This document shows, one piece after another, positions 1-63,488 of a DNA stretch of 64,000 nt. Made by a program: the position numbers and the translations under genes. Origin of the DNA: Candidatus Latescibacterota bacterium (GTDB lineage Bacteria > Krumholzibacteriota > Krumholzibacteriia > Krumholzibacteriales > Krumholzibacteriaceae); assembly GCA_019038625.1 (NCBI GenBank), contig JAHOYU010000077.1, positions 3,703 through 67,702 on the forward strand, given 5' to 3'. Below the pieces are notes generated by a model. It was not told the origin of the DNA. It ran no database searches and saw only the letters and a list, made by a program, of their open reading frames with translations. The number at the start of each line of letters is the position of its first letter. Within the stretch, counting starts at the first letter, position 1.

Positions 1-228
1 CAGGGGAATGTGACTGCGCTCGAACAACGTCCCTACCGTCACCGTAAACGGCTTGCGACAGTGGCCGCACTTGTACAGTCCAGGGCGTGTAGACTTACCC
101 TCAAGCTTGTAAGCCTTGTCCATACCGCCGCAATGTGGGCAGACAACGCCATCAGGCCAGCGAACCTTTTCAAGGTACTCACGTGCCGCCTGTTCATCAT
201 GGAAGTATTGCGCGGAAAGTTGGCTCAT
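1..228 (-). CDS. IS1595-family (ISXO2-like) transposase, N-terminal 76 aa only; the gene runs off the left edge
   Basis: Reverse-complement translation from ATG at 228 gives MSQLSAQYFHDEQAAREYLEKVRWPDGVVCPHCGGMDKAYKLEGKSTRPGLYKCGHCRKPFTVTVGTLFERSHIPL. It has the zinc-ribbon CPHCGG...CGHC and the TVTVGT motif typical of the N-terminus of IS1595-family transposases. AAGGAG RBS at 236-241. It is absent from the ORF track because no stop codon lies within the window. Confidence 0.7.
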   Translation of the reverse strand, partial: MSQLSAQYFHDEQAAREYLEKVRWPDGVVCPHCGGMDKAYKLEGKSTRPGLYKCGHCRKPFTVTVGTLFERSHIPL

Positions 229-231
229 CGG

Positions 232-837
232 TTACTCCTTGAAAGGATTACCATCGGGTGATTTGCCTTTTAAGCATGCAACTGAATTCCAAAGATATTC
301 GCGGTCTTTATCTGAAAGATTTTGATCGCATTTCAGGGTATCAACTATCTGCCCTTGGCGATCCCAAATCTCTTTGAGTAGGGGAATTCTTCCTTCAAGT
401 ATTTTTAGTCGCTCAAGATTAAGTTGATCCAATTGGGCTTTAAGCTGTTTCTCTTGGGTTTCAAGTTGTTGGATTTGAATAGATAAATGCTTTTTATCAG
501 TTTTAAGCCGTTCTGACTTGATGGTGAGTTCATCATAGCGAATTTGCAGAGTGTCCTTTTCGGATTGAATTTGACTTAAGCGATCTTCACTTTCCTGTTT
601 GGCTTTTAAATCGAGGGCTTTATGAAATTGATGAAGGCGGATAAGAGCGGCGACAACTATGATTGTCAACGCGATGTATGCCAAAGTCGATTGGCTAAAA
701 TATATCAACGCCGCTACAATGGAATTGCCAATTCCAAGAATGAAATAAAGGCCATGTTTAAACTTGTCCGGGATGATACCGGTCTGAGCTTTTGGGCTGG
801 GGTTACTATTTGCAATCTTTTCCATGTGTTGCTCCAT
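232..837 (-). CDS. membrane-anchored coiled-coil protein (two predicted TM helices, then a long heptad-rich region)
   Basis: 201-aa ORF. Hydrophobic segments LYFILGIGNSIVAALIYF and IALTIIVVAALI are followed by a K/E/Q/L-rich coiled coil. Promoter-like element just upstream at 843-900. A diverged truncated copy lies at 57353-57652. The stop overlaps the RBS of the transposase gene. Confidence 0.55.
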   Translation of the reverse strand: MEQHMEKIANSNPSPKAQTGIIPDKFKHGLYFILGIGNSIVAALIYFSQSTLAYIALTIIVVAALIRLHQFHKALDLKAKQESEDRLSQIQSEKDTLQIRYDELTIKSERLKTDKKHLSIQIQQLETQEKQLKAQLDQLNLERLKILEGRIPLLKEIWDRQGQIVDTLKCDQNLSDKDREYLWNSVACLKGKSPDGNPFKE

Positions 838-842
838 AGCTT

Positions 843-900
843 GAAAGGTCTATTTCCAATATACATCCTTTGTATCTGGTATGTCAAGTATATAATCGCC
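843..900 (-). promoter_or_regulatory. sigma70-like promoter (TTGACA, 18-nt spacer, TATATT) reading leftward; copy 1 of a repeated element that begins GGCGATTATATACTTGAC
   Basis: The reverse complement is ggcgattatatacttgacataccagatacaaaggatgtatattggaaatagacctttcaa. It is nearly identical to 57279-57338, and its first 23 nt recur inverted at 58047-58064. Confidence 0.5.
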
Positions 901-1055
901 TTAGAAAGTGGGCTTTGAACAACGGCTATCAAGAGGGGCTTAGTCTGGACAGGATTAACCCCGATGGAAACTACGAGCCGAGTAATTGTCAATGGCTGAC
1001 TCGCGGTGAAAACACAAGCAAAATGCACCGGGAAAAACACCGAGTTCAGGTTTAA
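901..1055 (+). pseudogene. HNH homing-endonuclease C-terminal remnant; its 5' part is replaced by the repeat element
   Basis: ORF 870-1055 encodes ...NGYQEGLSLDRINPDGNYEPSNCQWLTRGENTSKMH, which resembles the C-terminal half of HNH_3 endonucleases with the catalytic His replaced. The N-terminal 10 codons of the ORF lie inside the repeated promoter element, so the gene appears to have been interrupted. Confidence 0.45.
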
Positions 1056-1101
1056 TGTAGTTTATAGCAGCAGCACTCACACTTAGCAAAAGGAGAAGCA
1101 G

Positions 1102-1845
1102 ATGGGAAAGCTGCATGAACTATTGAGTGTGGAGCCGGATGTTGTCGGCACTGCAAAAGCCATTGTTGACGAGGGCATCAGCACCCTTGGCAAGAAAGGC
1201 GAAAGGTTTACGGGACTGCGCAAGACCTACCAGCCCCTGGACGAGGAGGGCACCAGCTACCCGCCTGAGATTACTCAGGTACAGGAAACGGTATCGGGCA
1301 AGCTCGATTACGTAGCGGGAACGCTGGCCAAGGCGATTAATATCGTTTTGAGCAAAGAGGTCACGAACACGCTGACCTCGGCCAAGCTCCTGATTGGCAA
1401 AGAAGACTTCGGGGAGTTCCCGGCCACCGTCTACTTGGCTCTGGAAAAGCAGGTTAAGGAGTTCAGGCGCGTGCTTCAGGCGGTGCCTACCCTTGACCCG
1501 GCGTACACATGGAAGGCTGACCCTGGCCGCGCACATACTATGGTAACAGATACCGTTGAAACTCAGCGCACGGAGAAACAGCATCAGCCGGTGGTGATGT
1601 ACGAGGCCACCAAGGAACACCCGGCGCAGGTCGAGATGATCAGCCGGGATGTGGTAGTCGGCAACTGGAACACGATCAAAGAGAGTGGCATGATCTCCGT
1701 CAGGGCCAAGAGTGAGATGCTTGCCCGCTGCGATCAGGTCATCAGGGCCATCAAGACGGCGCGCCAGCGCGCTAACGACATCGAAGCTAGCAAGGTCACC
1801 GTGGGCATGGCGATCTTAAAATTTATAACCGAAGAAAGGAAGTAG
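1102..1845 (+). CDS. hypothetical protein (247 aa)
   Basis: Long ORF with a GGAG RBS 8 nt upstream. No motif recognised. Confidence 0.55.
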   Translation: MGKLHELLSVEPDVVGTAKAIVDEGISTLGKKGERFTGLRKTYQPLDEEGTSYPPEITQVQETVSGKLDYVAGTLAKAINIVLSKEVTNTLTSAKLLIGKEDFGEFPATVYLALEKQVKEFRRVLQAVPTLDPAYTWKADPGRAHTMVTDTVETQRTEKQHQPVVMYEATKEHPAQVEMISRDVVVGNWNTIKESGMISVRAKSEMLARCDQVIRAIKTARQRANDIEASKVTVGMAILKFITEERK

Positions 1846-1977
1846 TACCGATAGGGGTATGCGTCAGCTTTCGCCTTAGTAATGGGGAATAATCCCCTGA
1901 GCAGACGTAACAATTCAGCTTATTACCCCTCAGTCTCAAGAAGGAGCGGTGCATTGAATAACTTGCCAAGGTTACTT

Positions 1978-2014
1978 TGCCGAAACGTGGGTTCGAGTCC
2001 CACCGGGGCCGCCA
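1978..2014 (+). other. tRNA 3'-half fragment: T-arm GTGGG-TTCGAGT-CCCAC, 3' acceptor strand CGGGGCC, discriminator G, encoded CCA
   Basis: Canonical GGTTCGAGTCC T-arm. The complementary 5' acceptor strand (GG followed by pyrimidines) is not found within 100 nt upstream, so this is not a complete tRNA. Confidence 0.5.
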
Positions 2015-2026
2015 ATAAAACTCTAT

Positions 2027-2056
2027 GGCCCCGTAGTTTAGTGGCAGAACGCGGCT
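2027..2056 (+). other. tRNA 5'-half fragment: acceptor strand GGCCCCG, TA, D-arm GTTT-AGTGGCA-GAAC
   Basis: GGCCCCG is the exact complement of the 3' acceptor strand at 2004-2010, which lies 12 nt upstream. No T-arm or 3' acceptor strand follows within 90 nt. Confidence 0.45.
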
Positions 2057-2103
2057 ATAAGCAGACACCCTGGCGTGAGCGAAAGATGCAGACAGCGTTC
2101 CGA

Positions 2104-2176
2104 ATTGCTATAGCTCAATTGGTAGAGCTTCTGACTATGGATCAGACTGTTACCGGTTCAAATCCGGTTAGCGAAT
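2104..2176 (+). tRNA. tRNA gene, 73 nt, no encoded CCA; anticodon loop CUAUGGA, identity uncertain
   Basis: Cloverleaf read by hand: acceptor ATTGCTA/TAGCGAA with six of seven pairs and an A1-A72 mismatch; D-arm GCTC-AATTGGTA-GAGC; anticodon stem TCTGA/TCAGA; 5-nt variable loop; T-arm ACCGG-TTCAAAT-CCGGT. Confidence 0.5.
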
Positions 2177-2195
2177 ATTGAGAGACTTGTAATCT

Positions 2196-2238
2196 CTTGG
2201 GGGGGGGAACAGGCGAGTTCCCTCCCCCCTTTTATTTA
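2196..2238 (+). terminator. rho-independent terminator
   Basis: GGGGGGGGGAAC, loop AGGCGA, GTTCCCTCCCCCC, followed by TTTTATTT. This is a near-perfect 12-bp GC-rich hairpin with a T-tract, immediately after the tRNA region. Confidence 0.7.
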
Positions 2239-2250
2239 AACGGGGATCGA

Positions 2251-2427
2251 ATGACCTACGATGAGTCAAATCTTGAAGATGGCTGCTGCCCGTGGTGTGG
2301 GCATAAGCTTACCCTGCGTAGAATATATGGTAAGTACCACGAAGCGGAGTGCGAGAATTCCAAGTGCGTCGAGGGCTATTACTATGATAGCAGCCCACCT
2401 GAGGTTCACTTTGGACGACCGGAGTAG
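2251..2427 (+). CDS. small Cys4 zinc-ribbon protein
   Basis: An internal ATG of ORF 2197-2427 gives MTYDESNLEDGCCPWCGHKL...HEAECENSKC. The upstream part of that ORF is the terminator hairpin. Confidence 0.5.
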   Translation: MTYDESNLEDGCCPWCGHKLTLRRIYGKYHEAECENSKCVEGYYYDSSPPEVHFGRPE

Positions 2428-2730
2428 ATGATGGATTTATCAAAGCTCAATAAGCTGCTCACCCTGCCGCCGTGGGAATGGGAGGGCATGTGCTTAGTGA
2501 ATCAAGAAGGCGAAACAATTATTGAGGCGGCCCATCCGTCATACGCTACTAATCTCGAAGAATGGAAGCCGTTACTCGCCGCCGCCCCTGACCTGCTGGC
2601 AGAGGTTGAGAAGTTGCGGGAGAAGTTGGCGCAGATAAGCATCTGTGCCAGCAACGCTCAATATGGTCGGCTGGATATGAATGAGGCCATGAGCAGCATA
2701 GCCAAAGCCGCAAAACTGGAGTGTAAGTGA
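2428..2730 (+). CDS. hypothetical early protein; paralog of 63174-63488
   Basis: Shares the M(M/I)DL(S/T)K..PW N-terminus and the AAAPDLLAEVE(K/R)LR segment with the 104-aa ORF at 63174-63488. ATGATGG overlap with the upstream stop. Confidence 0.55.
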   Translation: MMDLSKLNKLLTLPPWEWEGMCLVNQEGETIIEAAHPSYATNLEEWKPLLAAAPDLLAEVEKLREKLAQISICASNAQYGRLDMNEAMSSIAKAAKLECK

Positions 2731-2960
2731 TGGCAATATGTAAGGTGTGCAAGCCGCTGATAGCCGCACTGACCAACGAGGTGTATGCTATAAAGGCCGA
2801 GAGAGATAAGCTGCGAACCGAGAAATCCGTGTATAAGGAACTGGCCGAACTGCGAAGTAGTTTGTTATGCCTCTATCGCGTTGGAGGGAGACCAAGTGAC
2901 CGGCTGCTTGATGGGCTGGATAGATTGCAAAAGAAAGCCGAAGAACTGGAGGGCAAGTGA
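2727..2960 (+). CDS. hypothetical protein (77 aa, coiled-coil-like)
   Basis: Start overlaps the upstream stop (GTGATGG), consistent with operon-style coupling. Confidence 0.45.
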   Translation: MMAICKVCKPLIAALTNEVYAIKAERDKLRTEKSVYKELAELRSSLLCLYRVGGRPSDRLLDGLDRLQKKAEELEGK

Positions 2961-3259
2961 CTGATGAACAGGCACCCTTGAACCTTGAGCCTCGCTTCAA
3001 CGGGCCGGTTTACGAGCCTGTGCAAGATCACTCACGGCTGTACAAGCAGCACGAGGTTATCAGGGGTTACATGCTGTACGCATACCGGCATGGCAGCGGC
3101 TGGCGCACCCTGGCCGAGATAGAAAAGGCCACCGGCTTTCCGCAAGCTTCTATCAGCGCACAACTCAGGCACCTGCGTAAACCGCGCTTTGGAAGCTATG
3201 CGGTAGATAAGCGCAGACGGCGCGATGCGGGCCTTTGGGAATACAGAGTATCACATTAA
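2957..3259 (+). CDS. hypothetical protein (100 aa), possible winged-helix regulator
   Basis: ORF overlapping the upstream stop; basic C-terminus. No firm motif. Confidence 0.45.
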   Translation: MTDEQAPLNLEPRFNGPVYEPVQDHSRLYKQHEVIRGYMLYAYRHGSGWRTLAEIEKATGFPQASISAQLRHLRKPRFGSYAVDKRRRRDAGLWEYRVSH

Positions 3260-3269
3260 CCGGGAGTAA

Positions 3270-3524
3270 ATGATGGCGAACTGGCGGCATAGGGTTAAGC
3301 TCAGAGACCTGTTTGAGTCATTCGACCCACAAGAAACCGCAGAGGCCGAGAAGGCCGAAGTGCTGCGGGTGGGCAAGGCTGTACTTGCAAGGGTTAAGGG
3401 CGAAGATTGCCTTAATGGGTTCCGCCTGAAACGCTTTATTGAGGCCGAAACGGAAGCGCAGTCTAATCGCGTGATCGAGAGCCTATACGATTTTTGCGAC
3501 CAACACCTTATCTGGGTTGATTAA
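3270..3524 (+). CDS. hypothetical protein (84 aa)
   Basis: ORF with a GGAG-type RBS. Confidence 0.45.
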   Translation: MMANWRHRVKLRDLFESFDPQETAEAEKAEVLRVGKAVLARVKGEDCLNGFRLKRFIEAETEAQSNRVIESLYDFCDQHLIWVD

Positions 3525-3553
3525 CCGATCCAAATCACCGAAAGGGACTACAG

Positions 3554-4870
3554 ATGAAAGGATTTAGAATAACCCTACTGATGCTCGATCATTACGGCGG
3601 AGTGAAAGCCGCCCTTGTAAGGCCGGGAGATATACCGGTGATCAAAGTCGAGGGGCCGAATGGAGCCGGGAAGACAACGGTGATCGATTCGATCTTTGCC
3701 GTTGTTGCGGCCCAGACACTGCAAGACCCCATTCGTCACGGCGCGAAAAAGGCCACTATCACGCTGGCCATGAGCAATGAGGAAAAAGATGAAATCACGG
3801 TCACCAGACACATGACCGCGAAGACATCCAGGCTGGAGGTGAGCTACAACGGCGTCCCGCAGGAAAGCCCGCAGACCCTGCTCAACAAGCTGTTCAGCAA
3901 GGTATCGATTGATCCGCTGGCCTTTGCGCGCATGAAAAAGCGGGAGCGCATTGACGTTATACTCGACCTGACCGGCAAGAAGGATGAGATAGCCAAGCTG
4001 GATGCCGAATACCAATGCGCGTACGATGAGCGCACGCTTACCAACCGCATAATCAAGACGCTTCAAGGTAAGCTGGATGGCGAGGAACGCCCGGAGAACG
4101 ATAAGCCAGAGGCCGAGATAGACACACAGGGCGTACTTGATAAACTGGCGGCGGAGCGGCAGCGGATACGGGGGGTTGAAAGCAGCAACGATCAGCGTAA
4201 GATTCTGAGCAACAAGATTCTTGAGGCCGAAGTTGATAGGGACAATAATGCCCGCCAGATAAAGCAGTACGAAGACACTATAGCCTCCCTCAGGGAAGAC
4301 GATAAGAATTTGCAGGAGGCGATAAGCGAGAGAAACAAGGCTATAGCCGATATCGATGATGGGTTGAAGGGCGAGGCACCAAGCGAAGTTGCAGCGCTTG
4401 AACAATCCCTGGTTGACGCACAGGCCCACAACGGTCGGGTGGCCGCTGAAAACGCATACTGGACGCTCATAGCCGATGCGAAGTCCGAGAAAGAAACGTC
4501 TGCGGCCTACACCCGCAAGCTGGAACAGATCGAGGTAGCAAAGCGGGATATCCTGTGCGAGAACCTCCCGTTCAAGGAGATCACCATTACCGGCGATACC
4601 ATTCTAATCGAGGGTAAGCCGTTTGATGACCTGTGCGGCATGGAAAAGATGTTTGCCAGCATGGAAATAGCCCTGCGGATGAATCCAAGCCTACGGGTGA
4701 TCAGGATTGCCGATGGCGCTGAACTGGATAAGAAAAGCTGGAAGAAGATCGAGAGCTTTGCCGTCAAGAATAACCTTCAGGTATGGACTGCCGTTGTGTC
4801 CGATGACCGACACAGTGGTAGTTTCTACATAGAGGAAGGAGTGTTATCGGCAAAAGAAGAGCAAGGGTAG
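3554..4870 (+). CDS. SMC/SbcC/RecF-like AAA ATPase (recombination or repair)
   Basis: Walker A GPNGAGKTT near the N-terminus, a long central coiled coil, and a C-terminal Walker B-like LRVIRIADGAELD. RBS GGGACTACAGATG. Confidence 0.7.
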   Translation: MKGFRITLLMLDHYGGVKAALVRPGDIPVIKVEGPNGAGKTTVIDSIFAVVAAQTLQDPIRHGAKKATITLAMSNEEKDEITVTRHMTAKTSRLEVSYNGVPQESPQTLLNKLFSKVSIDPLAFARMKKRERIDVILDLTGKKDEIAKLDAEYQCAYDERTLTNRIIKTLQGKLDGEERPENDKPEAEIDTQGVLDKLAAERQRIRGVESSNDQRKILSNKILEAEVDRDNNARQIKQYEDTIASLREDDKNLQEAISERNKAIADIDDGLKGEAPSEVAALEQSLVDAQAHNGRVAAENAYWTLIADAKSEKETSAAYTRKLEQIEVAKRDILCENLPFKEITITGDTILIEGKPFDDLCGMEKMFASMEIALRMNPSLRVIRIADGAELDKKSWKKIESFAVKNNLQVWTAVVSDDRHSGSFYIEEGVLSAKEEQG

Positions 4871-4948
4871 CGTGGAGTGATGACAAGTATGGCAAAGGCA
4901 CGGTAGCGTAGGGTTCGGTTCGGTAGAGTAAGGTAAAGGTATGGTGGA

Positions 4949-5377
4949 GTGAAGCATGGTGGAGTTATGGTGCTGGCCGTCCCATCAATAAAGGTGGCTG
5001 ACTTGAGTAAAAAGTCCAAGGGCACATACCGGGCGTGTAGCGGTAAAGGCGTAGAGTTTTTTGACAAAGAGTGGTGGGCTGATGCCGCCGCGATATTGAG
5101 TAGGAAGCTCCCGAAGTCGGTAGTAGTTCGTGGTGAAGAGGTAAGGCAGAACATAGGAGGGGGAAGGGTAAAAAGGCTGGTTGTAAAGGAGTGGATTATC
5201 AACAAGGCCTTTCTGGGCAATCGGGTAGACGATTACAGGAAATGGAACGTGATGAAGTATATCGGTGACAAGGGCGTATGCCTTCTGTACTGCCTGTACC
5301 ACCAGAAAATGACACTACAGGCGCTGGATATCATTGAGGAGGCCGAACCTCATATCCTGCACATACCTGGGGAATGA
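4949..5377 (+). CDS. hypothetical protein (142 aa; the start may be the Met 6 codons downstream)
   Basis: ORF only. Confidence 0.4.
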   Translation: MKHGGVMVLAVPSIKVADLSKKSKGTYRACSGKGVEFFDKEWWADAAAILSRKLPKSVVVRGEEVRQNIGGGRVKRLVVKEWIINKAFLGNRVDDYRKWNVMKYIGDKGVCLLYCLYHQKMTLQALDIIEEAEPHILHIPGE

Positions 5378-5484
5378 TTCTAAACATGCCGCCTGTAAGC
5401 CTCCAGGGGTCGCGCTTACCTACCTTGGCGGGGAACGGCGTGAAGCCCTTGGAGCAGGGCGGGCTTAACTTAAGGAGAATTGAC

Positions 5485-6117
5485 ATGCCTAGAGTCCATT
5501 TTGTAGCAAAGGCACGCAAGGATAACGAAGTATGTAAAAAGGGCGAAAGTTACTACTGGTGGAAGCACAAGACCGGCCCGCGTAGCAGCATAAAACGCAT
5601 GAGTAAAGCCAGACCAAGGGGCAGTGAGCTTACCCTGTCCGACAAGATTGGCCGCATGAGGGCCGCTGGCGAGGCCATAGAAGACTCGTTTGGTAATCTG
5701 GATACTGGTGATGTTGATAGCGCGGAAAGCGTCATCAGCGCCCTTGAGGAAGCTGAGAGTGAGGTGCGTGAGGTGGCCGATGAGTACCGGGAGTCGGCTG
5801 AGAACATGGAAGAGGGCTTTGGCCACTCCACCTCCCAGAGCGAGGCCATCGAAGAGCAGGCCGATGAGGCCGAGAGCTACGCCGATGAGATCGGGAACCT
5901 CAAGGATAGCATCGAGAATGTTGAGATACCCGACAGGGATGATTTCGAGACGGATGCCAAGGAAGAGATCGAAAGGCAGGTCAATGCCAACGAGCTTGAG
6001 GAAGCCGAGAGCGACAGCGCAGTAGCGCAGGTTATGGACGAAAAATACGATGAGGCCGTGAGTGGTTACATAGATGAGATAGGCGGGTACCAAGGCGAAG
6101 CACCGTGCCCCGTATAA
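5485..6117 (+). CDS. highly acidic protein (basic N-terminus, D/E-rich C-terminal 150 aa)
   Basis: Internal ATG with AAGGAG 7 nt upstream. MPRVHFVAKARKD... is followed by long runs such as EEAESEVREVADEYRESAENMEEG. Confidence 0.5.
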   Translation: MPRVHFVAKARKDNEVCKKGESYYWWKHKTGPRSSIKRMSKARPRGSELTLSDKIGRMRAAGEAIEDSFGNLDTGDVDSAESVISALEEAESEVREVADEYRESAENMEEGFGHSTSQSEAIEEQADEAESYADEIGNLKDSIENVEIPDRDDFETDAKEEIERQVNANELEEAESDSAVAQVMDEKYDEAVSGYIDEIGGYQGEAPCPV

Positions 6118-21898: not shown

Positions 21899-21937
21899 TT
21901 TTTCAAGCGCTCCTGCAGTCGCTATCTCCCTATGCGC

Positions 21938-21983
21938 CCAATATCGCGCAGGGATTTTCTCAACTGCTTGCCAGGGTTAGGCA
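21938..21983. repeat. 46-bp direct repeat, copy 1 (intergenic, between the giant gene and the tail fiber gene)
   Basis: aatgcgcccaatatcgcgcagggattttctcaactgcttgccagg is repeated exactly at 22087-22132, where it encodes the last 15 residues of the giant protein. Confidence 0.7.
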
Positions 21984-22085: not shown

Positions 22086-25000
22086 CTATTTCTTAATGCG
22101 CCCAATATCGCGCAGGGATTTTCTCAACTGCTTGCCAGGATCAGGAGGCTTTGGGAAAACAGGAGATTCCCGAACCGGAACCGCCTTAAGTTCGGGATTG
22201 ATTTTCCTCTGCTCCTTGATGAACCGACTCTTAACGGACTTCGCAGTTTTCTTCTCCATTGACCCATCCGCGACAGCCCTATCCACTGCACTCTTGAAAC
22301 GCTCCCGCTCTCCTGCGGTAAACACGGTGGTCGCCGCATCGTCCAACATACCGTAGACAGTTTGCTTACTCTTACCAGGATAAGGTTTACGGTAAAAACG
22401 GCGCATCACGGGTATAAACCGCGTTTCTATCTTTTCATCAGTTGCCAGTGAGATGCCGGTAGCCACCGAATTGCTGACAAACTTCCCAATTCCACCGCCC
22501 AGGAAGTTGATCGTGTGGTCAATATACTCAGGGCTGACATCCGCCGCACCGAAAGGCTTACGCTGCGTAGCGGTCTTCTCTGCCAACCAGCGAGTGAATT
22601 CCCTTGTGGATGGGCGCACGCCCTTGAAATATAACTGGTGCCGTGGCTTTTTAGGCCCATAGGCCGGTTGATCTGGTGCCACAGGGCCACCGAAAAATGT
22701 TTTATTTGTAGCCAACTGCACCGGCAGATCAAGGGCAGTCGGTGAAATGATCTGTGTCAACGGGCCACCGCCAACAGGACTTGCAGCATCGGCCACCGCG
22801 CCCACCATCCTGGCCGCGAGTTTAACTGGATCAGGGTTATTGCCTAATGCCATTTCTGCCGCCAGTCCACCGAGCGCCCAATAGACGTTAAGCCCGTAAG
22901 GCAACGGTACGCTCAATGTTCTGCCGCCGCCAAGATGCCAAGTAGCGTTCTGATCCTTTTGGAAGTCGGCCACTTCCTCCCAATCGTCAGGATCGATCAT
23001 GCGATTCTTTAACTCGTTGAGAAATGCGGTGGCTATGATAAGGCCGATCAGCGCCTGTGCCCTTACCTGTCCTGCCGTCTTAGGCTTACCGGGGATGCCG
23101 ATTGTTCTCAAATTACGGGCTATGCCCTGAATCGTAGCATTTGAGAACAGGTACAGACTGTTCAATATCCTACCGATTTCACCTTTTTTATTAAAGTTGA
23201 CGGTCACGTTTTTAGCATAACTCGCGGCCACTTCCTTTGTCGCGCCAGCACCCTTAAGGTGATGGTATACCGACAGGCGGATACCGCTCTCCACCATCTC
23301 ATTGTAATCCTGTATTAATTGCCCAAGGACTTTTATCGGTGCGACTATCCGACCTTTACCCGTGTAAGAGCGCACCTTGCGCTCAAGCTGTTTTATCCTC
23401 TGCTCCAACGGCTTGTTGTCAAACCAACCTACCTTACCGCCAGTAGCCTTCAAGTCCTCATACTCAGCAGCCCAACCTTTATCCGCATCACTTCTGATGT
23501 TACCGCGCACACCGTTGATAGCCGCAGGTAGTGAGGCAAGTGTCTTAGTCGCCAGCTTAAATCCATGATCGGAAGTGATATGGAATGTGGCCGTGGGGGT
23601 ATCCCTGATGAAGTTGAAGATCGGGAATACGGGCGAAAACGTTGTTATTACCCCGCGCTGTATGGTGTTAAACAGTTCAAGCGCACCGCCGATTATGGGC
23701 ACGGTACTCTCTGTACCTAAGCTTTTCATTGCACGGGCGAGAACCACATCCCTGATAGTCACCTCTATGGTCTTGCCCTCTTCCTTGACGGCAAATATCT
23801 CATGCGCATAATCACTCGCCGGATCACGAAACGCAATCTCTCCCTCTTCGTTTATTGTCGAAGGGTTAAAGACCTCCTTGGCATCCCAAAGCGGATGAGG
23901 ATTGTTGCGCACGAACTCAAGGAACGTACTGGCTACCTTGTTCTTTTCCTCGCGCATTACCGCCTGCTCGTAGTCTACGATGGCCTGCACGAATGGATTG
24001 TCCGCAATCGACCAGCGCCCATGTGCCCGCTTAATGGACTTCCCGCTTACCGAGAATCCCTTACCGATACCACGATAGGCTTTCTTACCCGCCTTACCCT
24101 TGAGCGGTACGTAATAATTGTACTGGTCCTTATACTTCTGGTAAGCTTCTTCTGTGATCTCACCATAGTCACGGTAACGTTCGAGCGTCACGTTGATAAT
24201 CTTCTTACGGAACTCATCGGCAAACTCTTCTATGCCCGTACCCTCGTAACGATCCAGAACAACAGCAGCCTGGTTTAATGATATACCGGCCCCGAAAGTA
24301 TCATCCCGATCCTCAAGCCTCGCACTCAGCTTCGCAAGTTCCTTTTCAGCCACCTCTGGCGTGATAACCCCAGCCTCAAGCTGTGCGTTAAGATCGTCAA
24401 TCATCTCTCCGTACTTAGCCTGACGGCGTTCGGCGGTGTGCTTCGCGTACATGAACCCACCGAGTTTGCCCACACTATATCCAGCTTGAGCCAAGCGCAC
24501 CATGAACGACTTCCTGCCCTTGGTCAGAAAATCCTCAAGTTTATCAAGCTCGTGCGACACTCTGCCGGGGAACAACTCTGCGGCCAGCCGCGTATCCTCT
24601 GTCTGCGGAACCACATCATAAGCTTTCTGGATTGTCTCTATTCTGTTCAGCTTATCGACTACCACGCGCACAAACTTCTCCCTGTTTGTCTCATCATCAA
24701 TCTGAGGAATGGTGCGCTCAAGATCAGCAGAGACATCGGTGCGGGCGAAGCGCAACCCCTGCTCTGCGGCCACCATCTGCCGCTCAAGCTCTGCGATCTT
24801 CTGCAAGTAACGCATCTGTATGTTTTCCGTGCTCACCCCGTTGCGCATCGGCGGTAGGTTAGCCAACAACTCTGATACCTGCTGTATCTCCTTCTCTATG
24901 GCAACAGGGTCAAGGGTACGGGCGAACAAAGGCTGACCAGCCTCTCTCTCCGCTCTCTTGCGCCCCATACTCGCCCTCAGAGCATCATCGAGCAACACCC

Positions 25001-40533: not shown

Positions 40534-41439
40534 TCAAGGAACTGCGCCAGCAGCAGGATTAAGCACACCGCTAAGATTGATCACATGAGAGGCGAAGTTC
40601 TGACACACGAAAAAATCATTCGTGGCCGCAAGTGGTGCAGCGGTGTTCAAAGGACATTGTAAGTAGTTGTCGTAAATCGCTCCAGTTGCAGAGCTATCCG
40701 ACTTGATGCCCAGTACCAGACCGGCATCCAAATCGATATTTACGATGCGGTTGTTGTGTATCCGAATATTGGTCGAGTTGCCTGTAAGATGATCGATGAC
40801 CGATGCCGAGCAATCAACATGCCACTTGTTGTTTCTGATAATGCAGGTGTCGCTGGTTCCGGTAAAAAAGATCGAACTGGTCATCGCACCAGCGCCAGTA
40901 ATAAAGTCACAGCCCTCGATAATCACATTGGCGATAGTGGTAGCGATATCGACATGCTTCTTAAAGTCCAAAGCCGCCGTATCCCTGAACACACAGTTAC
41001 GGATAACCGTTCCATCAGCAGCGGCAGCAAGATCAATTGCCTGCACGCAGTCCGCAATACCAGACGCGAACTTCAGGTTCTCAAGCACCGTATTAGCCAC
41101 GGTAATCATCACCGCGCCAGCGGTGGCAGTCGATGTAAATGTGGGAACCCTGTTGCCCTGGCCAAGACCCCTGATGGTCAAATTGGCAACATCAACGGCA
41201 AAGATAGCCGCAGTAGACAGGTTCTCGGTATGGCCAGCCGCAATCAGAATCGTATCACCAGCCGTAGCCTTGCCGATAGCAATGTCGATTGTAGCATAGG
41301 GGTTGTCTTTCGTACCCCTTCGGGTAGTACCGCTATTCGCATCAACCCAGATCACCTTATTCCCAGAGCCGGGTATTTGATTCATGGGAAGCTCTTTTAC
41401 CGCAGCATCCCCGCTTATTACACTTGGGAAACTACTCAT
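40534..41439 (-). CDS. right-handed beta-helix (pectate-lyase-like) protein, candidate spike or depolymerase (301 aa)
   Basis: NLTIRGLG...TVIRNCVFRDTAALDFKKHVDIATTIANVIIEGCDF... shows typical parallel beta-helix rungs. The C-terminal about 250 aa are paralogous to 41483-42781. Confidence 0.55.
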   Translation of the reverse strand: MSSFPSVISGDAAVKELPMNQIPGSGNKVIWVDANSGTTRRGTKDNPYATIDIAIGKATAGDTILIAAGHTENLSTAAIFAVDVANLTIRGLGQGNRVPTFTSTATAGAVMITVANTVLENLKFASGIADCVQAIDLAAAADGTVIRNCVFRDTAALDFKKHVDIATTIANVIIEGCDFITGAGAMTSSIFFTGTSDTCIIRNNKWHVDCSASVIDHLTGNSTNIRIHNNRIVNIDLDAGLVLGIKSDSSATGAIYDNYLQCPLNTAAPLAATNDFFVCQNFASHVINLSGVLNPAAGAVP

Positions 41440-41482: not shown

Positions 41483-42781
41483 TTAGATAGTATCAGCGCC
41501 AGGCTCTAACACACCACTGACATTGATAGTGTTGGAGGCATAGTTCTCGGACGTATAGTAATCAGCCGTAACGGCAATAGGTTCGGCATCAGTTTTGGGC
41601 GACAAGCAGTAGTTATCGTAGACCAATCCCGTTCCGTCACCGGAAGAATCAAGGCCAAGTACCAGGCCGGCCCCAGTGTCGATATTAATTATTCGATTAC
41701 CGTAAATCGCAATATCGAGCGGATCGTCAGCCAAGTGGTCAATGACACCAGCCGAACAGTCAACATGCCAGAAGTTATTACGGATAATGCAGTAAGAACT
41801 CGTCCCGGCGAAATCAACAGATTCTGTCATCCCACCGGCAGCGGTAGTAAAATCACAGCCCTCAATAATGAGATCGGTAACAGTTGTGGCGATATCAATG
41901 TGTTGCAAAAAGTCCAGGGCCGCACTTGAATCTCTGAACACACAGTTACGGATAACAGTACCGTCTGCGGCGGCGGAAAGATCAATCGCGTTTGCGCAAT
42001 CAGTGATGTTGGACACGAACTTCAAGTTCTGAAGTGTCGTATTCGCGGCTGTAATCATCACCGCGCTAAGTTGTGCGGTGGTGGTAAATGTCGGTATCCT
42101 CTGGTTTTCACCCATACCTTTGATGGTCAACCCTGCGGTACTCACGTTAAAACCTACCGCAGTGACATACGCACCGTTCATCGGTATGTAAAGTGTGCTC
42201 GGAGTGGCGGCAGTAGTGCAGATGCCGTCAGGATCAGCGACCGTCCCGATAGTAATATTGCCAGAAGTCGCGCTGCCAACATAGACCGATGTAACGGTCT
42301 TGAATTTTTGGGTGGTATAGACGGTGCCAGAGGACGCGGGGCCAACTCGCGCCTCGCTAACAGGTTGGCCCCTGCCATTCGTACCGGTGATGGTAAAGGT
42401 GTCGCCAGAATCGTTTTGATCACTTGTGATCCCTACGACACATTCAGTCGCCAGCGTTGCCACTACCGTAAGATTCTCGGTATGCCCGGCTGCAATCATT
42501 ATCGTATCGCCGGTCTTGGCCGCAGCGATGGCCGCAGCTACAGTAGCATACGGTCTAACGTATGTCCCGTCACCGCCCTTAGCAGCGTTAACGTCAACCC
42601 ATAGAACTTTCTCTACCGGGCCGACAAGAGGCTGAATGGGCATGTTCAGAATCGACACGCCGTCACTAAAGCCTTCTGGGTAATTTGAACTATACATTAT
42701 TTCTCCTACGGACGCTCGTAGCGCCCCTTCGGGATAACCCGTAGTTCGTGATTGAAAGCTAATGGTACGGCAGCCGGTCAA
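41483..42781 (-). CDS. right-handed beta-helix protein, paralog of 40534-41439, with an extra N-terminal module (432 aa)
   Basis: The C-terminal domain aligns with the 301-aa neighbour (TVIRNCVFRDSSAALDFLQHIDIATTVTDLIIEGCDF). The N-terminal part carries the FKTVTSV module. Confidence 0.55.
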   Translation of the reverse strand: MTGCRTISFQSRTTGYPEGALRASVGEIMYSSNYPEGFSDGVSILNMPIQPLVGPVEKVLWVDVNAAKGGDGTYVRPYATVAAAIAAAKTGDTIMIAAGHTENLTVVATLATECVVGITSDQNDSGDTFTITGTNGRGQPVSEARVGPASSGTVYTTQKFKTVTSVYVGSATSGNITIGTVADPDGICTTAATPSTLYIPMNGAYVTAVGFNVSTAGLTIKGMGENQRIPTFTTTAQLSAVMITAANTTLQNLKFVSNITDCANAIDLSAAADGTVIRNCVFRDSSAALDFLQHIDIATTVTDLIIEGCDFTTAAGGMTESVDFAGTSSYCIIRNNFWHVDCSAGVIDHLADDPLDIAIYGNRIINIDTGAGLVLGLDSSGDGTGLVYDNYCLSPKTDAEPIAVTADYYTSENYASNTINVSGVLEPGADTI

Positions 42782-51673: not shown

Positions 51674-54229
51674 TCAGTACCCACTTATAGGGCTTTTGCC
51701 CTTGTCGCGTTGACGGTGGAGTGCCGCATGTCGCCTGTGTTGCAGGCTATCCTTGTAAGTTTTGTTCTCGCGCCTCTGGTATTCAACCGGCTTTATCCTG
51801 AAAGCAAAGGTCTGGGCCAGCGCATCTCCAAAGTCCGGGCTGTCAAGTTCACGCGCCTTCATATGCTCCTTGCGCTCCAACTGTATCTTATCCGCAACGC
51901 TAAAGCCATACTCGATAGATGTCAGGTCTGTTTCAAGGTAATCGTACTCGCGCTGCTCCAGGCCACTCAGGTCTGCGGTCTTCAGCCATTCGCGCATGTT
52001 TCCCCACATCTCGGCCCGCTTATTGAAGTATTTCTTCTTGCTTGACCGGCTACCCGCCACAACGGAGAACCAGCGGCACTTAAGCTGCCTGCCACGATCA
52101 ATGACACCTGTCCCCGGCCCTGTCTCATCGATAAACACGGCATCGGCACCGTATTCGTCTTCAGCGTCCTGCACCAAGCTAACAATTGTCATGTTATCAA
52201 GCTCTCGATACTCGCGTATCTCCAGTATTCTAAGTCCCTGCCTTATAACAATAACAGTCCTGTCGTCACCGAAACGGGCTACATCAACGCCTATCACAAT
52301 AGGCGAATCCTTGTAGAGATCGTAATCAAGCTTCCGCTTACGGGCCTCTTCCACCCAATCAAGGGCAATAAACTGCATTGAACTTGCGCGCGGAAACTCA
52401 CCCTTCACCCTGACCCTCACAAAATCGCTGTCTTCTCCGTAATCGTCTATCCACTCCTGGATAAGCTGTTTCTCGGCCTTTTTCGCCGTCCTGCTGTCCA
52501 CCTTGAAAGTCACCCAACGCTTGCGGAACTTCGTCCAGCAGGCTCTAAAGCGGCCCACGTTTCTTGTCGGGTTGCCGAAACATATCCAGATAGAGCCGGT
52601 TGTGGTCATGGCACCGCTGGCCACCTCCCATATCTTGTCATCGATAGCACTCGCCTCATCGAAGATCATCAGCACGTTTTCTTCGTGTGTACCGGCAAAC
52701 GCCTCTGTATTCTGCTTGCTCCAGGGTGCGGCGGTCATAAAGTGCGTGGTAGGGTGTTCGATTGCGCGGAACTTGGTGGCAGTCCATTCAAACCAATGCT
52801 GGTTGATAACCATCTGGTGCCACTTCGATAGCTCCATCCATGTCTTGTCGGTCAACTGCATCTTGGTATTGGCGGTCACAACGGCCTTGATCGGTGTCCG
52901 CGTGGACATGAACCAGAGGATAATCCAGGCTACAAGGGCCGTGTTGTGTGTGACGATGAAATCATTTGCCAGATATAATTGATCCTCAGCCTCAACAGTT
53001 ATACACATGCATTCTGCTTCACCGGCAAGCTCCACGCGATCAATAAACCTTTCCAGATATCGCTTCTGTGATGTCGGCCTTATTCTCTCTGCCTTGCGCT
53101 TAATGTAGCACGGAGTAAATCCGTCTGGAAACGTCAAGGAACACAAGTAGGCTCCGTTATGCGTCTTACTATGCAGTCTTGCCTTCCCGCCGATGGAACG
53201 AGTTAGCCATATCACGTCTTCGATGAGCAACTTAGATACAGAGCAATATTGAGCACATCCAGTATCAGAAACATATCCATCGGTGTCCATCAGGCCACGT
53301 AGCACCTCTTCGCGCACCTCACGGAGATTATACTTATAAATATCGGGCACATGTTTTTCTCGCGCACCACACTTGTCAACGCCGAGTCGCTCCAACGCTG
53401 GTCGCAAATGTCCCACATTAAATACCTTTGCCTTCGTCTCTCGCTTGCTTTGCCCCTCGGTGAGCCTATAGCGCGCCGAAGCGATGCGCTCAAACACCTC
53501 AGCGTCCATATTTGTAATACGGCTTGTATTTCGGCAACCATCCCCCAGCCATGCGCCCAGTGTATACGGATCAACATTGACCCACTGATATGGATATTCT
53601 ACCGCACCATGACGCGGTATTTGGAATCTTCGTGCGCGCCCCTGCCCGTTTTTCCGCCGCGGCCCAGTTTCGGCGATCTCAGCAGTGCTCTTTGTTTCCC
53701 AATCTTTTCTGCGCTCTTTCACAAGCCATAAGTGCTCGGCGCACGTTAAGGTGCTGCTTTCATCGTCAAATATCACTCGATATATTGGCTTGATGCCCTG
53801 TGGGTGAATTTGTGCAATTCTTGTAGGCTTTCCGTCCCTACCAAAGACGGTATCTCCGGGCTTCAAATCTCCCCAGCGCCGTACACCGGTTGGCGTGTCC
53901 AGCTTCATATCAGTTGGATGCGCTTTTCCTGCCCCGTGGCCGCTGCTGACGGCCATCTGGATAGCGCGTGTTATGTTCCCATCTTTGCGCTTGAGCAGTT
54001 CTTCACGCAGCAGTCCAAGAAACTTGGTCTGCCAGATATCCGGCCCTGTCTCTTTTTCGAGAATAGTGCCCGATCTGCCCCAGGGAAGCGCCCACATGAC
54101 AAAGCCGTAAGGGTCATCCTTGAAGCTCATTATCTTCAAGGTCAACTCTTTCTCGTTCAACTCCGCCTTTGCCGCGCCATCGTGGTGCGATCTGCCTGTA
54201 GATTGGGCATGTGCTGTGGCCTCACTCAT
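51674..54229 (-). CDS. terL: terminase large subunit interrupted by a 327-aa intein
   Basis: Walker A is split: ...VSSGHGAGK | intein | TALVAWIILWF..., which reconstitutes GHGAGKT. Downstream terminase ATPase and nuclease pattern (...TTTGSIWICFGNPTRNVGRFRACW...). The extein is about 524 aa. Confidence 0.8.
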   Translation of the reverse strand: MSEATAHAQSTGRSHHDGAAKAELNEKELTLKIMSFKDDPYGFVMWALPWGRSGTILEKETGPDIWQTKFLGLLREELLKRKDGNITRAIQMAVSSGHGAGKAHPTDMKLDTPTGVRRWGDLKPGDTVFGRDGKPTRIAQIHPQGIKPIYRVIFDDESSTLTCAEHLWLVKERRKDWETKSTAEIAETGPRRKNGQGRARRFQIPRHGAVEYPYQWVNVDPYTLGAWLGDGCRNTSRITNMDAEVFERIASARYRLTEGQSKRETKAKVFNVGHLRPALERLGVDKCGAREKHVPDIYKYNLREVREEVLRGLMDTDGYVSDTGCAQYCSVSKLLIEDVIWLTRSIGGKARLHSKTHNGAYLCSLTFPDGFTPCYIKRKAERIRPTSQKRYLERFIDRVELAGEAECMCITVEAEDQLYLANDFIVTHNTALVAWIILWFMSTRTPIKAVVTANTKMQLTDKTWMELSKWHQMVINQHWFEWTATKFRAIEHPTTHFMTAAPWSKQNTEAFAGTHEENVLMIFDEASAIDDKIWEVASGAMTTTGSIWICFGNPTRNVGRFRACWTKFRKRWVTFKVDSRTAKKAEKQLIQEWIDDYGEDSDFVRVRVKGEFPRASSMQFIALDWVEEARKRKLDYDLYKDSPIVIGVDVARFGDDRTVIVIRQGLRILEIREYRELDNMTIVSLVQDAEDEYGADAVFIDETGPGTGVIDRGRQLKCRWFSVVAGSRSSKKKYFNKRAEMWGNMREWLKTADLSGLEQREYDYLETDLTSIEYGFSVADKIQLERKEHMKARELDSPDFGDALAQTFAFRIKPVEYQRRENKTYKDSLQHRRHAALHRQRDKGKSPISGY
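52943..53923 (-). mobile_element. intein with a LAGLIDADG homing-endonuclease domain, inserted after the Walker A lysine of the terminase
   Basis: Begins AHPTDMKLDTPTG... (Ala at position 1). Block B-like TCAEHLW. Two LAGLIDADG motifs, LGAWLGDGC and LRGLMDTDGYV. Ends ...FIVTHN, followed by the +1 Thr of the extein. Confidence 0.7.
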
Positions 54230-57144: not shown

Positions 57145-57278
57145 ATCCAGAACGGAACCCTTCTTACTTCTCGGTATTCTTTCACATCAACCTCCCTCTG
57201 GGGTTATTTGTAGTGCCTGTAACCATCACAAGCGCCGTTGTTGTGCATAGACCGTTAATCTACGCACCGCTAAATATG

Positions 57279-57338
57279 GCGATTATATACTTGACATACC
57301 CGCCGCAAAGGATGTATATTGGAAATAGACCTTTCAAG
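57279..57338 (+). promoter_or_regulatory. promoter, copy 2 of the repeated element (TTGACA 57291-57296, 18-nt spacer, TATATT 57315-57320)
   Basis: 57 of 60 nt identical to the reverse complement of 843-900. Confidence 0.5.
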
Positions 57339-57352
57339 CTACGGAGTATCAA

Positions 57353-57652
57353 ATGAATGACAGTGGCAAAAAAACCACCGAGAAAGAAACCAAGAAGGCC
57401 ATCCCCCCGGATAGATTTAAATATAGCCTCTTTTTTGTTTTTGGGATAGGCCAGGTTGCTATTACAATACTTCTTAGCAATGGGAATCTCTTGTTGGGCT
57501 ACATTGTCGCCGTGATTGTTATCGCCGGAGCAATTATCCTTTTCAATGGGCATGGTAACGCACTCCTAATAAAAGTAAAACAGGAAGCCGAAGATCGTTT
57601 AAGACAAATCCAATCCGAAAAGGACACTCTGCAAATTCGCTATAAGGTTTTT
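57353..57652 (+). pseudogene. truncated, diverged copy of the 232-837 membrane coiled-coil protein gene
   Basis: Protein and DNA similarity (for example caatccgaaaaggacactctgcaaattcgctat) runs to ...EKDTLQIRY and then is lost. The ORF continues as unrelated sequence to 57862. Confidence 0.5.
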
Positions 57653-57726
57653 TTACAAGTCCCAATCCAACCCATTTCATCACATGCCCTTACTGCAAGG
57701 GCGAAGGCTGTAAAGACTGTGAAAAT

Positions 57727-58011
57727 TCAGGATTGTTTTATGATCCCCGTAAGGATTTTGAATAATCTGTCTGCAACGCGCCAAGCGGCTGCATGTTCCA
57801 AATGTAGAATTAAATTGCCGTCTTCTCTGTCATCTGGTGCTTGTAAAACACCACAGGTATGATTTGTTCGATAGGCAACGAGTTCGCCCAATTGCCATGC
57901 CCGCGCATCACCCTCATTGTCATTATGTTCATCTTGTATCAGTTCACCGTTAGCCTTAACATGCTGGAATATCTCAATTACTTGCTCAATCTCGTTCTTC
58001 TTGCCTTTCAT
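57727..58011 (-). CDS. hypothetical protein (94 aa) inside the MITE-like element, driven by the inverted repeat copy at 58047-58064
   Basis: RBS GGGGGATAAAACGATG. Overlaps the 3' end of the truncated plus-strand ORF convergently. Confidence 0.4.
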   Translation of the reverse strand: MKGKKNEIEQVIEIFQHVKANGELIQDEHNDNEGDARAWQLGELVAYRTNHTCGVLQAPDDREDGNLILHLEHAAAWRVADRLFKILTGIIKQS

Positions 58012-58075
58012 CGTTTTATCCCCCTGTAGCGTTGAAGGCGAGGTACGTCAAGTATATAATCGCCATTAATTTTGA

Positions 58076-63181: not shown

Positions 63182-63488
63182 CTTCGCCCTCCAGTTCTGC
63201 GGCAGCTAACTGTTGCGCTTTCTCCAGTACAAGCAATGGAACCATGCCCTTGAGGTTGGCTATCCCTTGAAGTGTAGCTCGTAGCCGTTCAACCTCTGCC
63301 AGCAGGTCAGGGGCGGCGGCGATGAGGCGGGCGTTAGCAACACTTTCTGTTGCCCCCGATACACAAGCCAATTCCTTGAATATTATCTCTCCTTTTGAGT
63401 AAGCATCAATAGCGTAGCTTCTGCCCAAACACATCTCAGCCTTCCACGGCCCTGGCGTGTGGCCCTCAAACTTTGTCAGGTCAATCAT
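63174..63488 (-). CDS. hypothetical protein (104 aa), paralog of 2428-2730
   Basis: MIDLTKFEGHTPGPW...AAAPDLLAEVERLR shared with the plus-strand gene at 2428. Confidence 0.5.
   Translation of the reverse strand: MIDLTKFEGHTPGPWKAEMCLGRSYAIDAYSKGEIIFKELACVSGATESVANARLIAAAPDLLAEVERLRATLQGIANLKGMVPLLVLEKAQQLAAAELEGEDG

Follow-up and report, generated by a model that had tools for sequence, protein, structure and literature searches.

An IS1595-family element in an early gene of a tailed phage

The window analyzed here, a 64,000-nucleotide stretch of contig JAHOYU010000077.1 from a metagenome-assembled genome (MAG), is by its predicted genes a tailed-phage genome. Its first 900 bp, read on the minus strand, very probably belong, as its left portion, to a cargo-carrying insertion sequence (IS) of the IS1595 family, 2,752 bp in length, that transposed into an early phage gene annotated as an HNH endonuclease. 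Both ends of this element were located, an 8-bp target-site duplication (TSD) flanks it, the target gene is split in two, the transposase has intact domains, and the same architecture recurs in 69 relatives. The other 1,852 bp of the element came from a Logan contig (SRR14477300_22626 of run SRR14477300, 3,783 bp; here L088), which was located by exact look-up of the full-length transposase P0094 and whose bases 1–564 agree at every position with window positions 1–564 read in reverse complement. An earlier reading of the letters of the window (the original prediction) had proposed a mobile unit that carries a passenger membrane gene and landed in a homing-endonuclease gene; the terminal repeats, the TSD and an in-frame open reading frame (ORF) restored on removal of the element bear this out for a nuclease-annotated gene. 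Beyond the content claimed at that time, the element holds two or three more genes left of the window edge. Coordinates are collected in Table 1.

Table 1. Positions of the element, its target gene and the related cassette (window coordinates unless L088 is named).
Feature	Position	Strand	Remarks
Element order		−	IRL 1–23, promoter-like site, ORF1, transposase, ORF3, ORF4, IRR 2730–2752 (element positions)
Transposase N-terminus, first 76 codons of 302 amino acids (aa)	1–228	−	translation and PF12760; gene continues beyond the left window edge, at L088 337–1245
ORF1, membrane-anchored coiled-coil protein, 201 aa	232–837	−	between the left inverted repeat (IRL) and the transposase gene
Promoter-like site TTGACA-18-TATATT	858–887	−	11/12 sigma-70-type consensus matches; faces into the element
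IRL, GGCGATTATATACTTGACATACC	878–900	−	outer element end at 900; 1 mismatch to the consensus gGcgATtaTaTACTTGACaaAcC
TSD copy, 8 bp, TTAGAAAG (+ strand) = CTTTCTAA (element orientation)	901–908		second copy at L088 2417–2424
3′ fragment of the interrupted 135-aa gene, last ~50 codons and stop	901–1055	+	5′ half at L088 2680–2417(−)
ORF3, 76-aa zinc-ribbon ORF	L088 1248–1478	same as transposase	starts 2 nt after the transposase gene
ORF4, 275 aa	L088 1513–2340	same as transposase	310 aa if the start is at 1408
Transposase-less cassette, 787 bp	57278–58064		inverted repeat copies at 57278–57300(+) and 58042–58064(−)
Truncated ORF1 paralogue	57353–57862	+	residues 16–97 49% identical to ORF1 (82 aa); later sequence unrelated
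94-aa ORF, directed inward from the cassette's right repeat	57727–58011	−	no family match

Element ends and target-site duplication

The L088 sequence that ends in ...GGTATAATCGCC at position 2416 has the reverse complement GGCGATTATACCTTTTACGTACC, which is the right inverted repeat (IRR) of the element at positions 2730–2752. IRR matches IRL at 18 of 23 positions, the outer ends of the two are 2,752 bp apart, and directly outside both stands the octamer CTTTCTAA, identical in 8/8 bases. The base composition of the TSD is 75% A+T, and that of the TSDs of the relatives 73% A+T. In a 4.3-kb stretch searched for further sites like the 23-nt end consensus, with up to 7 mismatches allowed, only the outer repeats were found. 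The end of a rival IS between 229 and 330, named in the original prediction as the observation that would speak against it, was thus absent at ≤7/23 mismatches. Extension of the sequence to the left, a check set by the same prediction, gave the full transposase, the end motif again, inverted and 2,752 bp away from position 900, and the missing half of the target gene, and the search for a duplication at 900/901 and at the far end revealed the perfect 8-bp repeat. Each junction lies inside one Logan contig (L001, equal to window 843–2605, and L088). As three ORFs besides the transposase gene are enclosed by the repeats, the element is not a classical IS, which would carry transposition genes only; it is of the transporter kind with passenger genes, and so are all 69 relatives (1.8–4.2 kb).

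An 18-mer of the left end, GGCGATTATATACTTGAC, occurs exactly three times, at 883–900(−), 57278–57295(+) and 58047–58064(−), against a chance expectation of 0.07. Alignment of the three copies showed that their similarity begins precisely at the first G and that the sequences outside are unrelated. A boundary at 900 shared exactly with two distant copies had been claimed before; the motif does start at 900 as in the other copies, but the start of the second copy is 57278 and not 57279. Although the distant copies carry the same end motif, they bound a separate 787-bp cassette and are not further ends of this unit, and only one full copy of the element is present in the 64 kb.

The transposase

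Translation of 1–228(−) gives 76 aa, MSQLSAQYFHDE...CPHCGG...CGHCRKPFTVTVGTLFERSHIPL, which include CGHC and TVTVGT and match the Pfam family PF12760 (Zn_ribbon_IS1595) with an E value of 1.7e-17 and 63.5 bits (cut-off 25.4). A chimeric query made of these 76 aa and the remainder of a relative retrieved P0094, a 302-aa "IS1595 family transposase" whose residues 1–76 are equal to the window translation. P0094 is encoded on the same 70,917-bp MAG contig as protein P0084 (MBU8921225.1). At full length it matches PF12760 (E 2e-16), PF12762 (DDE_Tnp_IS1595, ISXO2-like; E 2.4e-31, 109 bits, cut-off 27) and NF033547 (194 bits, cut-off 75), and in a 20-sequence alignment of relatives its residues D139, D202, E238 and K245 are invariant or nearly so. 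These matches agree with the original prediction, which had recognized the N-terminus of an IS1595/ISXO2-type transposase in the leftmost 228 nt. The features of the IS1595 family, i.e., a DDE_Tnp_IS1595 domain, an N-terminal zinc ribbon, terminal inverted repeats and an 8-bp TSD, are all present, and the nearest transposases are ~67–68% identical to P0094. Within the family, the ISNwi1 group is presumably the closest: GGCGATTAT agrees with what we take to be its end consensus in ISfinder, ggnnatTAT, which serves as a lead only.

A stand-alone zinc-ribbon protein was also considered, since in a word-indexed protein search the 76-aa query matched only proteins of at most 133 aa. This was ruled out, as the match lengths end at 1.75 times the query, the ORFs at the GTDB loci are ~300–325 aa long and the element's own protein has 302 aa.

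The interrupted target gene

The sequence at 901–1055(+) encodes ...RKWALNNGYQEGLSLDRINPDGNYEPSNCQWLTRGENTSKMH... and resembles the C-terminal module found in phage proteins that carry the annotation HNH endonuclease, with 67% identity over 48 aa to residues 178–225 of Bacillus phage Izhevsk gp61 (231 aa; E 1e-16) and an E value of 5e-15 to phrog_3377. This homology starts within one codon of 900/901. The 5′ half of the gene is absent from the window itself and was found in L088, where the strand equal to the window plus strand encodes, past IRR, MPRWLCECKCG...YSIWRGMKKRC...YYGERGISVCQEWGADYLVFRK. Removal of the element and of one TSD copy joins this half in frame to WALNNGYQEGLSLDRINPDGNYEPSNCQWLT... 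and restores a 135-aa ORF, in which ...CQEWGADYLVFRK is followed directly across the junction by WALNNGY...; the predicted empty site reads ...GATTATTTAGTGTTTAGAAAGTGGGCTTTG... The restored ORF aligns without a break over the junction to phrog_374 with an E value of 9e-43 (8.7e-14 for the fragment alone) and to phrog_3377 with 3.3e-35.

No Pfam (E ≤ 0.05) or NCBIfam (E ≤ 0.01) family matched the restored ORF. It reads LDRINPDGNYEPSNCQW, with R, by our own reading, where HNH_3-type domains have His. From these comparisons the name HNH endonuclease appears to be an annotation label of the PHROG families, with no Pfam HNH domain behind it. The claim that 901–1055 is the C-terminus of an HNH homing endonuclease therefore holds as far as HNH-annotated phage families are matched; a role in homing is putative. 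The target gene is located in the rightward early region of the phage, between a tRNA-Glu gene (L088 2807–2881) and a DUF7873 gene (1102–1845).

Relatives of the element

For comparison we used 80 loci from GTDB genomes (L006–L085; 222 GTDB hits) and the best 80 of 486 IMG/VR stretches (L090–L169) that encode relatives of the transposase. The transposases of the 80 GTDB loci are 52–73% identical. An ungapped search for inverted repeats within 250 bp of the transposase genes returned chance matches only, because the elements are 2–4 kb and not ~1.1 kb long, and the problem was solved by a pattern search: the pattern GGNNATTATNNNNTTGAC lies a short way upstream of the transposase gene, with an inverted second copy 2–4 kb downstream. 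IRL could be assigned in 76 of the 80 GTDB loci, with the consensus gGcgATtaTaTACTTGACaaAcC and usually 44–83 bp before the transposase ATG. In 40 of those 76, IRR and a perfect 8-bp TSD were present as well (for example CAGAAGCC, TTAAATTA and TCTCGAGA; an 8-bp match is expected by chance once in 65,536 per locus), and these elements measure 1.8–4.2 kb. The same repeats with an 8-bp TSD were seen in 29 of the best 80 IMG/VR loci, which brings the total to 69 relatives (40 + 29). These 69 were the yardstick for the comparison of element ends named in the original prediction, and the outcome favoured it. IRRs of the 'ATACCTTT' type occur among relatives with perfect TSDs, e.g., L049 and L081.

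Given a length of 1.8–4.2 kb, every bounded GTDB relative carries 1–3 kb of cargo. All cargo lies downstream of the transposase gene in 61 of the 69 relatives. ORFs are found in the gap between IRL and the transposase gene at L015, L043, L057, L101, L137 and L156 (gap of 285–652 bp), and the gap is ~127 bp at L007 and L016.

The cargo of the relatives is highly variable, with 91 ORFs and very few shared clusters, and genes for toxin-antitoxin systems and anti-phage defence are enriched in it. Pfam matches included DUF3800 (in 6), PIN (4 + 2), DUF433, SocA_Panacea, Fic, NYN, M78 peptidase and D12 methylase, and PADLOC identified PD-Lambda-5 A (5e-151) and B (1e-115), PDC-M04A, HEC-09, PD-T4-10_B, RmrA and SoFic.

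Cargo genes and promoter of the element

ORF1 stands directly ahead of the transposase gene, and 3 nt separate its stop from the transposase ATG. The sequence AAGGAG, made up of the last two ORF1 sense codons (AAG GAG, before TAA), lies 6 nt upstream of that ATG, just as the original prediction had placed the ribosome-binding site of the transposase gene inside the last codons of ORF1. Residues 29–71 of ORF1 are hydrophobic by hydropathy and are followed by an L/Q/K/E-rich segment. Translation probably begins at the second ATG (825), for a 197-aa product, because this ATG has GGAG 6 nt ahead of it, and so does that of the cassette paralogue. ORF1 is 100% identical to P0084, which is likewise 197 aa long. 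A HMMER scan of 1.84 billion representative proteins revealed no homologue but ORF1 itself, no relatives were found in IMG/VR or in the JGI metagenomes, and family searches gave weak coiled-coil matches only, below the cut-offs.

A promoter had been proposed within 843–900, and a promoter-like site was indeed located there (887–858 on the minus strand). Its −35 hexamer TTGACA falls inside IRL, and the same promoter-like site is present in the 787-bp cassette copy. TTGAC is conserved in the consensus of both repeats, and 'tatntt' at element positions 37–42 is conserved across the 76 relatives. The first ATG after IRL, 63–75 nt from the element end, is that of ORF1. From its place in the left repeat, this promoter would normally serve the transposase gene. 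Since all four ORFs are on one strand, they would probably form a single operon transcribed from it, with translation of the transposase probably coupled to that of ORF1. The complement of the repeat contains TATAAT, and at 891–896 this hexamer points towards the HNH remnant and the DUF7873 gene, without a good −35.

The remaining cargo, ORF3 and ORF4, lies outside the window. The start of ORF4 is uncertain, as the gene either overlaps ORF3 or begins ~35 nt past it. Homologues of ORF4 were found in the cargo of L027, L036, L081 and L112 and form a family without a name. Assignment of ORF4 as a HEPN protein, considered for its RSSLDH motif, was rejected since the His is not conserved in the homologues, and a PDB profile search with ORF4 returned noise only. 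A conserved stretch, GGCTTCGGCGGCGT..CAGCAT.CG.CGGAGAAT.TCGTCG, recurs in the otherwise unrelated cargo of L020, L027, L034, L068 and L079. Its antisense encodes '...ILRRMLNTPPKP...', and ORF3 of the element has the similar 'FDDVVKKLVNTPPRLK'; the stretch may mark a small protein family common to the cargo.

The 787-bp cassette

The cassette bounded by the two distant copies of the end motif has no transposase ORF and sits between two minus-strand phage genes. Both of its 18-mers are perfect, and its 23-mers have 1–2 mismatches to the consensus. Logan contig L089 independently joins the right end of the cassette to the phage flank. The truncated paralogue in the cassette corresponds to the first ~97 codons of an ORF1-like gene and stands after a stretch in which the left repeat, promoter and 5′ untranslated region are repeated with 90% identity. 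Two patches are shared with the full element: 823–900 and 57278–57355 are 90% identical, and 535–608 and 57570–57643 are 89% identical. This patchy identity of ~90% suggests gene conversion between two diverged copies. The cassette is best described, on the evidence of its ends and content, as a non-autonomous relative of the full element resembling a mobile insertion cassette (MIC), and the transposase of the element could act on it in trans. An inversion between the full element and the cassette was considered as the cause of the missing TSD at the cassette and was rejected, since the full element keeps its own matched TSD.

At the right end of the cassette, TATAAT in the complement of the repeat combines with TTGAAG into an outward-facing promoter-like site at 58032–58060(+), with 10/12 consensus matches.

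Evaluation of alternative explanations

Several points weigh against transposition of a cargo-carrying element into the phage gene as we describe it. Both the transposition and the empty site are read from sequence comparison. IRR has diverged from IRL at 5/23 positions. The window and the Logan contigs may well share reads, so that the two assemblies are probably not independent samples. The promoter is a consensus match, and for a host in Bacteroidota the sigma-70 consensus might not hold (the MAG carries both labels, Bacteroidales and Latescibacterota). The cargo of the element gave no match above noise in Pfam, PADLOC, NCBIfam or PHROG. Finally, the cassette has no TSD, its flanks being CTAAATAT and ATTAATTT, and is thus not a simple transposition product.

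The 18-mer could instead belong to a phage promoter present in several copies, as its upstream portion, and the gene break be a result of recombination between promoter copies, given that the motif holds TTGACA followed by TATATT and that two of its copies precede paralogous genes. However, the same motif is the terminal repeat of the 69 transposase-bearing elements, which lie in unrelated bacteria and viral contigs and each have their own 8-bp TSD, and in the window an inverted partner and a perfect 8-bp TSD flank the unit; we consider this origin of the break scarcely credible. We also asked whether the transposase could belong to a compact, independent IS with its left end at 229–330, which would leave the membrane gene as a resident phage gene. 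The IRL of most relatives is indeed only 44–83 bp upstream of the transposase ATG, and the orphan membrane protein has been seen in no other phage. Yet no repeat-like sequence is present in 229–882 at 7/23 mismatches, the repeat pair with its perfect TSD encloses the membrane gene, and a minority of relatives also have ORFs ahead of the transposase gene, all of which makes such an arrangement very unlikely. Being derived from a MAG whose Logan contigs break at internal repeats, the sequence might further be an assembly artefact in which a bacterial IS was joined to phage DNA via a short shared repeat. A chimeric join is not expected to produce complementary gene halves and an exact 8-bp TSD, and each junction is contained within a single Logan contig (L001, L088), so that we give this explanation hardly any credence.

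It is possible, but in our judgement improbable, that the insertion was real and has since become an immobile relic, fixed in the phage and retained for its cargo or promoters, with a transposase inactive on these ends. The diverged IRR, the cassette without TSD and the single full copy in 64 kb are in line with such a fate. Against it stand the intact transposase ORF with its conserved catalytic residues, the IRRs of the 'ATACCTTT' type in L049 and L081, both with perfect TSDs, and the perfect TSD and the open, in-frame halves of the target gene, which suggest a recent event. For the transposition of the cargo-carrying element, which we favour, the DDE transposase and knowledge of the family point to a course in which the enzyme would bind both repeats and insert the element via an 8-bp staggered cut, with A+T-rich target sites being preferred.

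Comparison with known systems

T4-type phages have promoter-bearing shuffling cassettes (promoter-stem-loop cassettes, PeSL). As in those, small variable ORFs of a phage are delimited by a repeat that contains a promoter, whereas here the repeat is a transposase end, accompanied by a transposase gene and TSDs.

In the account of the IS1595 family in PMC8101967, citing Siguier et al. 2009, an N-terminal zinc ribbon is found in all groups except IS1016 and the TSD is 8 bp. IS with passenger genes have been called "transporter IS" (a term from Siguier, Gagnevin & Chandler 2009, cited by PMC3129680 and PMC8101967). The element shares with these a transposase with the Zn_ribbon_IS1595 and DDE_Tnp_IS1595 domains, inverted repeats, an 8-bp TSD and non-transposition genes between the repeats. 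It differs in residing in a phage genome and in that a cargo gene stands upstream of the transposase gene and is predicted to be coupled to it. The element belongs to the already described cargo-carrying IS1595 kind and is no new type of element. What makes it modestly unusual is the phage host with a base-exact gene disruption, the cargo gene ahead of the transposase and the companion non-autonomous cassette.

MICs and miniature inverted-repeat transposable elements are units bounded by IS ends without a transposase, e.g., MIC231 of IS231 (PMC3129680). The cassette resembles them in having the terminal repeats of the full element in inverted orientation, no transposase and one or two short ORFs. 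Unlike them, it has no TSD, its two ends are IRL-type, and in its interior only two patches of ~75 bp, at ~90% identity, correspond to the full element.

IS are rare in phages: 92% of phages are IS-free, with one IS per 346 kb (PMC3429520; Leclercq & Cordaux 2011). The present case is like phage IS insertions in general in that the IS survives by landing in a dispensable gene, and unlike them in that the IS1595-type transposase is almost absent from curated phage records. It was detected in 2 of 50,697 such records, both of them 4–5-kb fragments at 34% identity. At the same time, a phage-borne relative is not unique, because transposase relatives are encoded by the 486 IMG/VR stretches.

The locus provides a base-exact, fully resolved case of a cargo-carrying IS1595 element in a phage, with its ends, TSD, restored target and companion cassette. 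Because phages rarely tolerate IS and this type of transposase is nearly absent from curated phages, it is useful for asking how such elements enter and ride phages. The ~70 relatives with the same ends and a variable, defence-rich cargo (PD-Lambda-5, PIN, DUF3800) point to a widespread small vehicle and may matter more than the locus itself. A more far-reaching and speculative view, which we put forward with considerable doubt, is that this IS1595 clade might serve in general as a carrier of small conflict modules (toxin-antitoxin, anti-phage defence), one of which would here have colonized a phage able to shuttle it. ORF1, the orphan that stands between the promoter in the repeat and the transposase gene and has a second, truncated version in the cassette, might then function in superinfection exclusion or some other conflict of phage and host, its expression being linked to that of the transposase. 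As the cargo of the relatives is rich in toxin-antitoxin and defence genes, this view has support, which falls short of proof.

Phage context and other features of the window

Phage genes identified in the window encode the large and small terminase subunits, portal, head-closure protein, capsid, RecT, a DnaC-like loader and a methylase. The 46 window ORFs of at least 110 aa yielded no integrase. Window positions 1–6000 had no near-identical match among phage records.

Several repeats and one RNA-like site were also seen. A perfect 34-bp inverted repeat (2576–2609 and 63289–63322) has arms 60.7 kb apart, and Logan contigs break there. A perfect 44-bp direct repeat (21932–21975 and 22096–22139, 164 bp apart) is located at the 3′ end of a 2,178-aa ORF. 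A direct repeat of ~240 bp with 75% identity (40880–41117 and 41826–42066) lies in two adjacent ORFs on the minus strand that are probably paralogous structural genes. At 1965–2077(+) there is a weak match to the Rfam family YrlA (Y RNA-like, tRNA-like module), with 28 bits against a gathering threshold of 69 and an E value of 0.0034; it adjoins the tRNA at 2104–2176, the sole tRNA called there by ARAGORN. The large terminase candidate at 51674–54229(−) is unusually long, with 851 aa.

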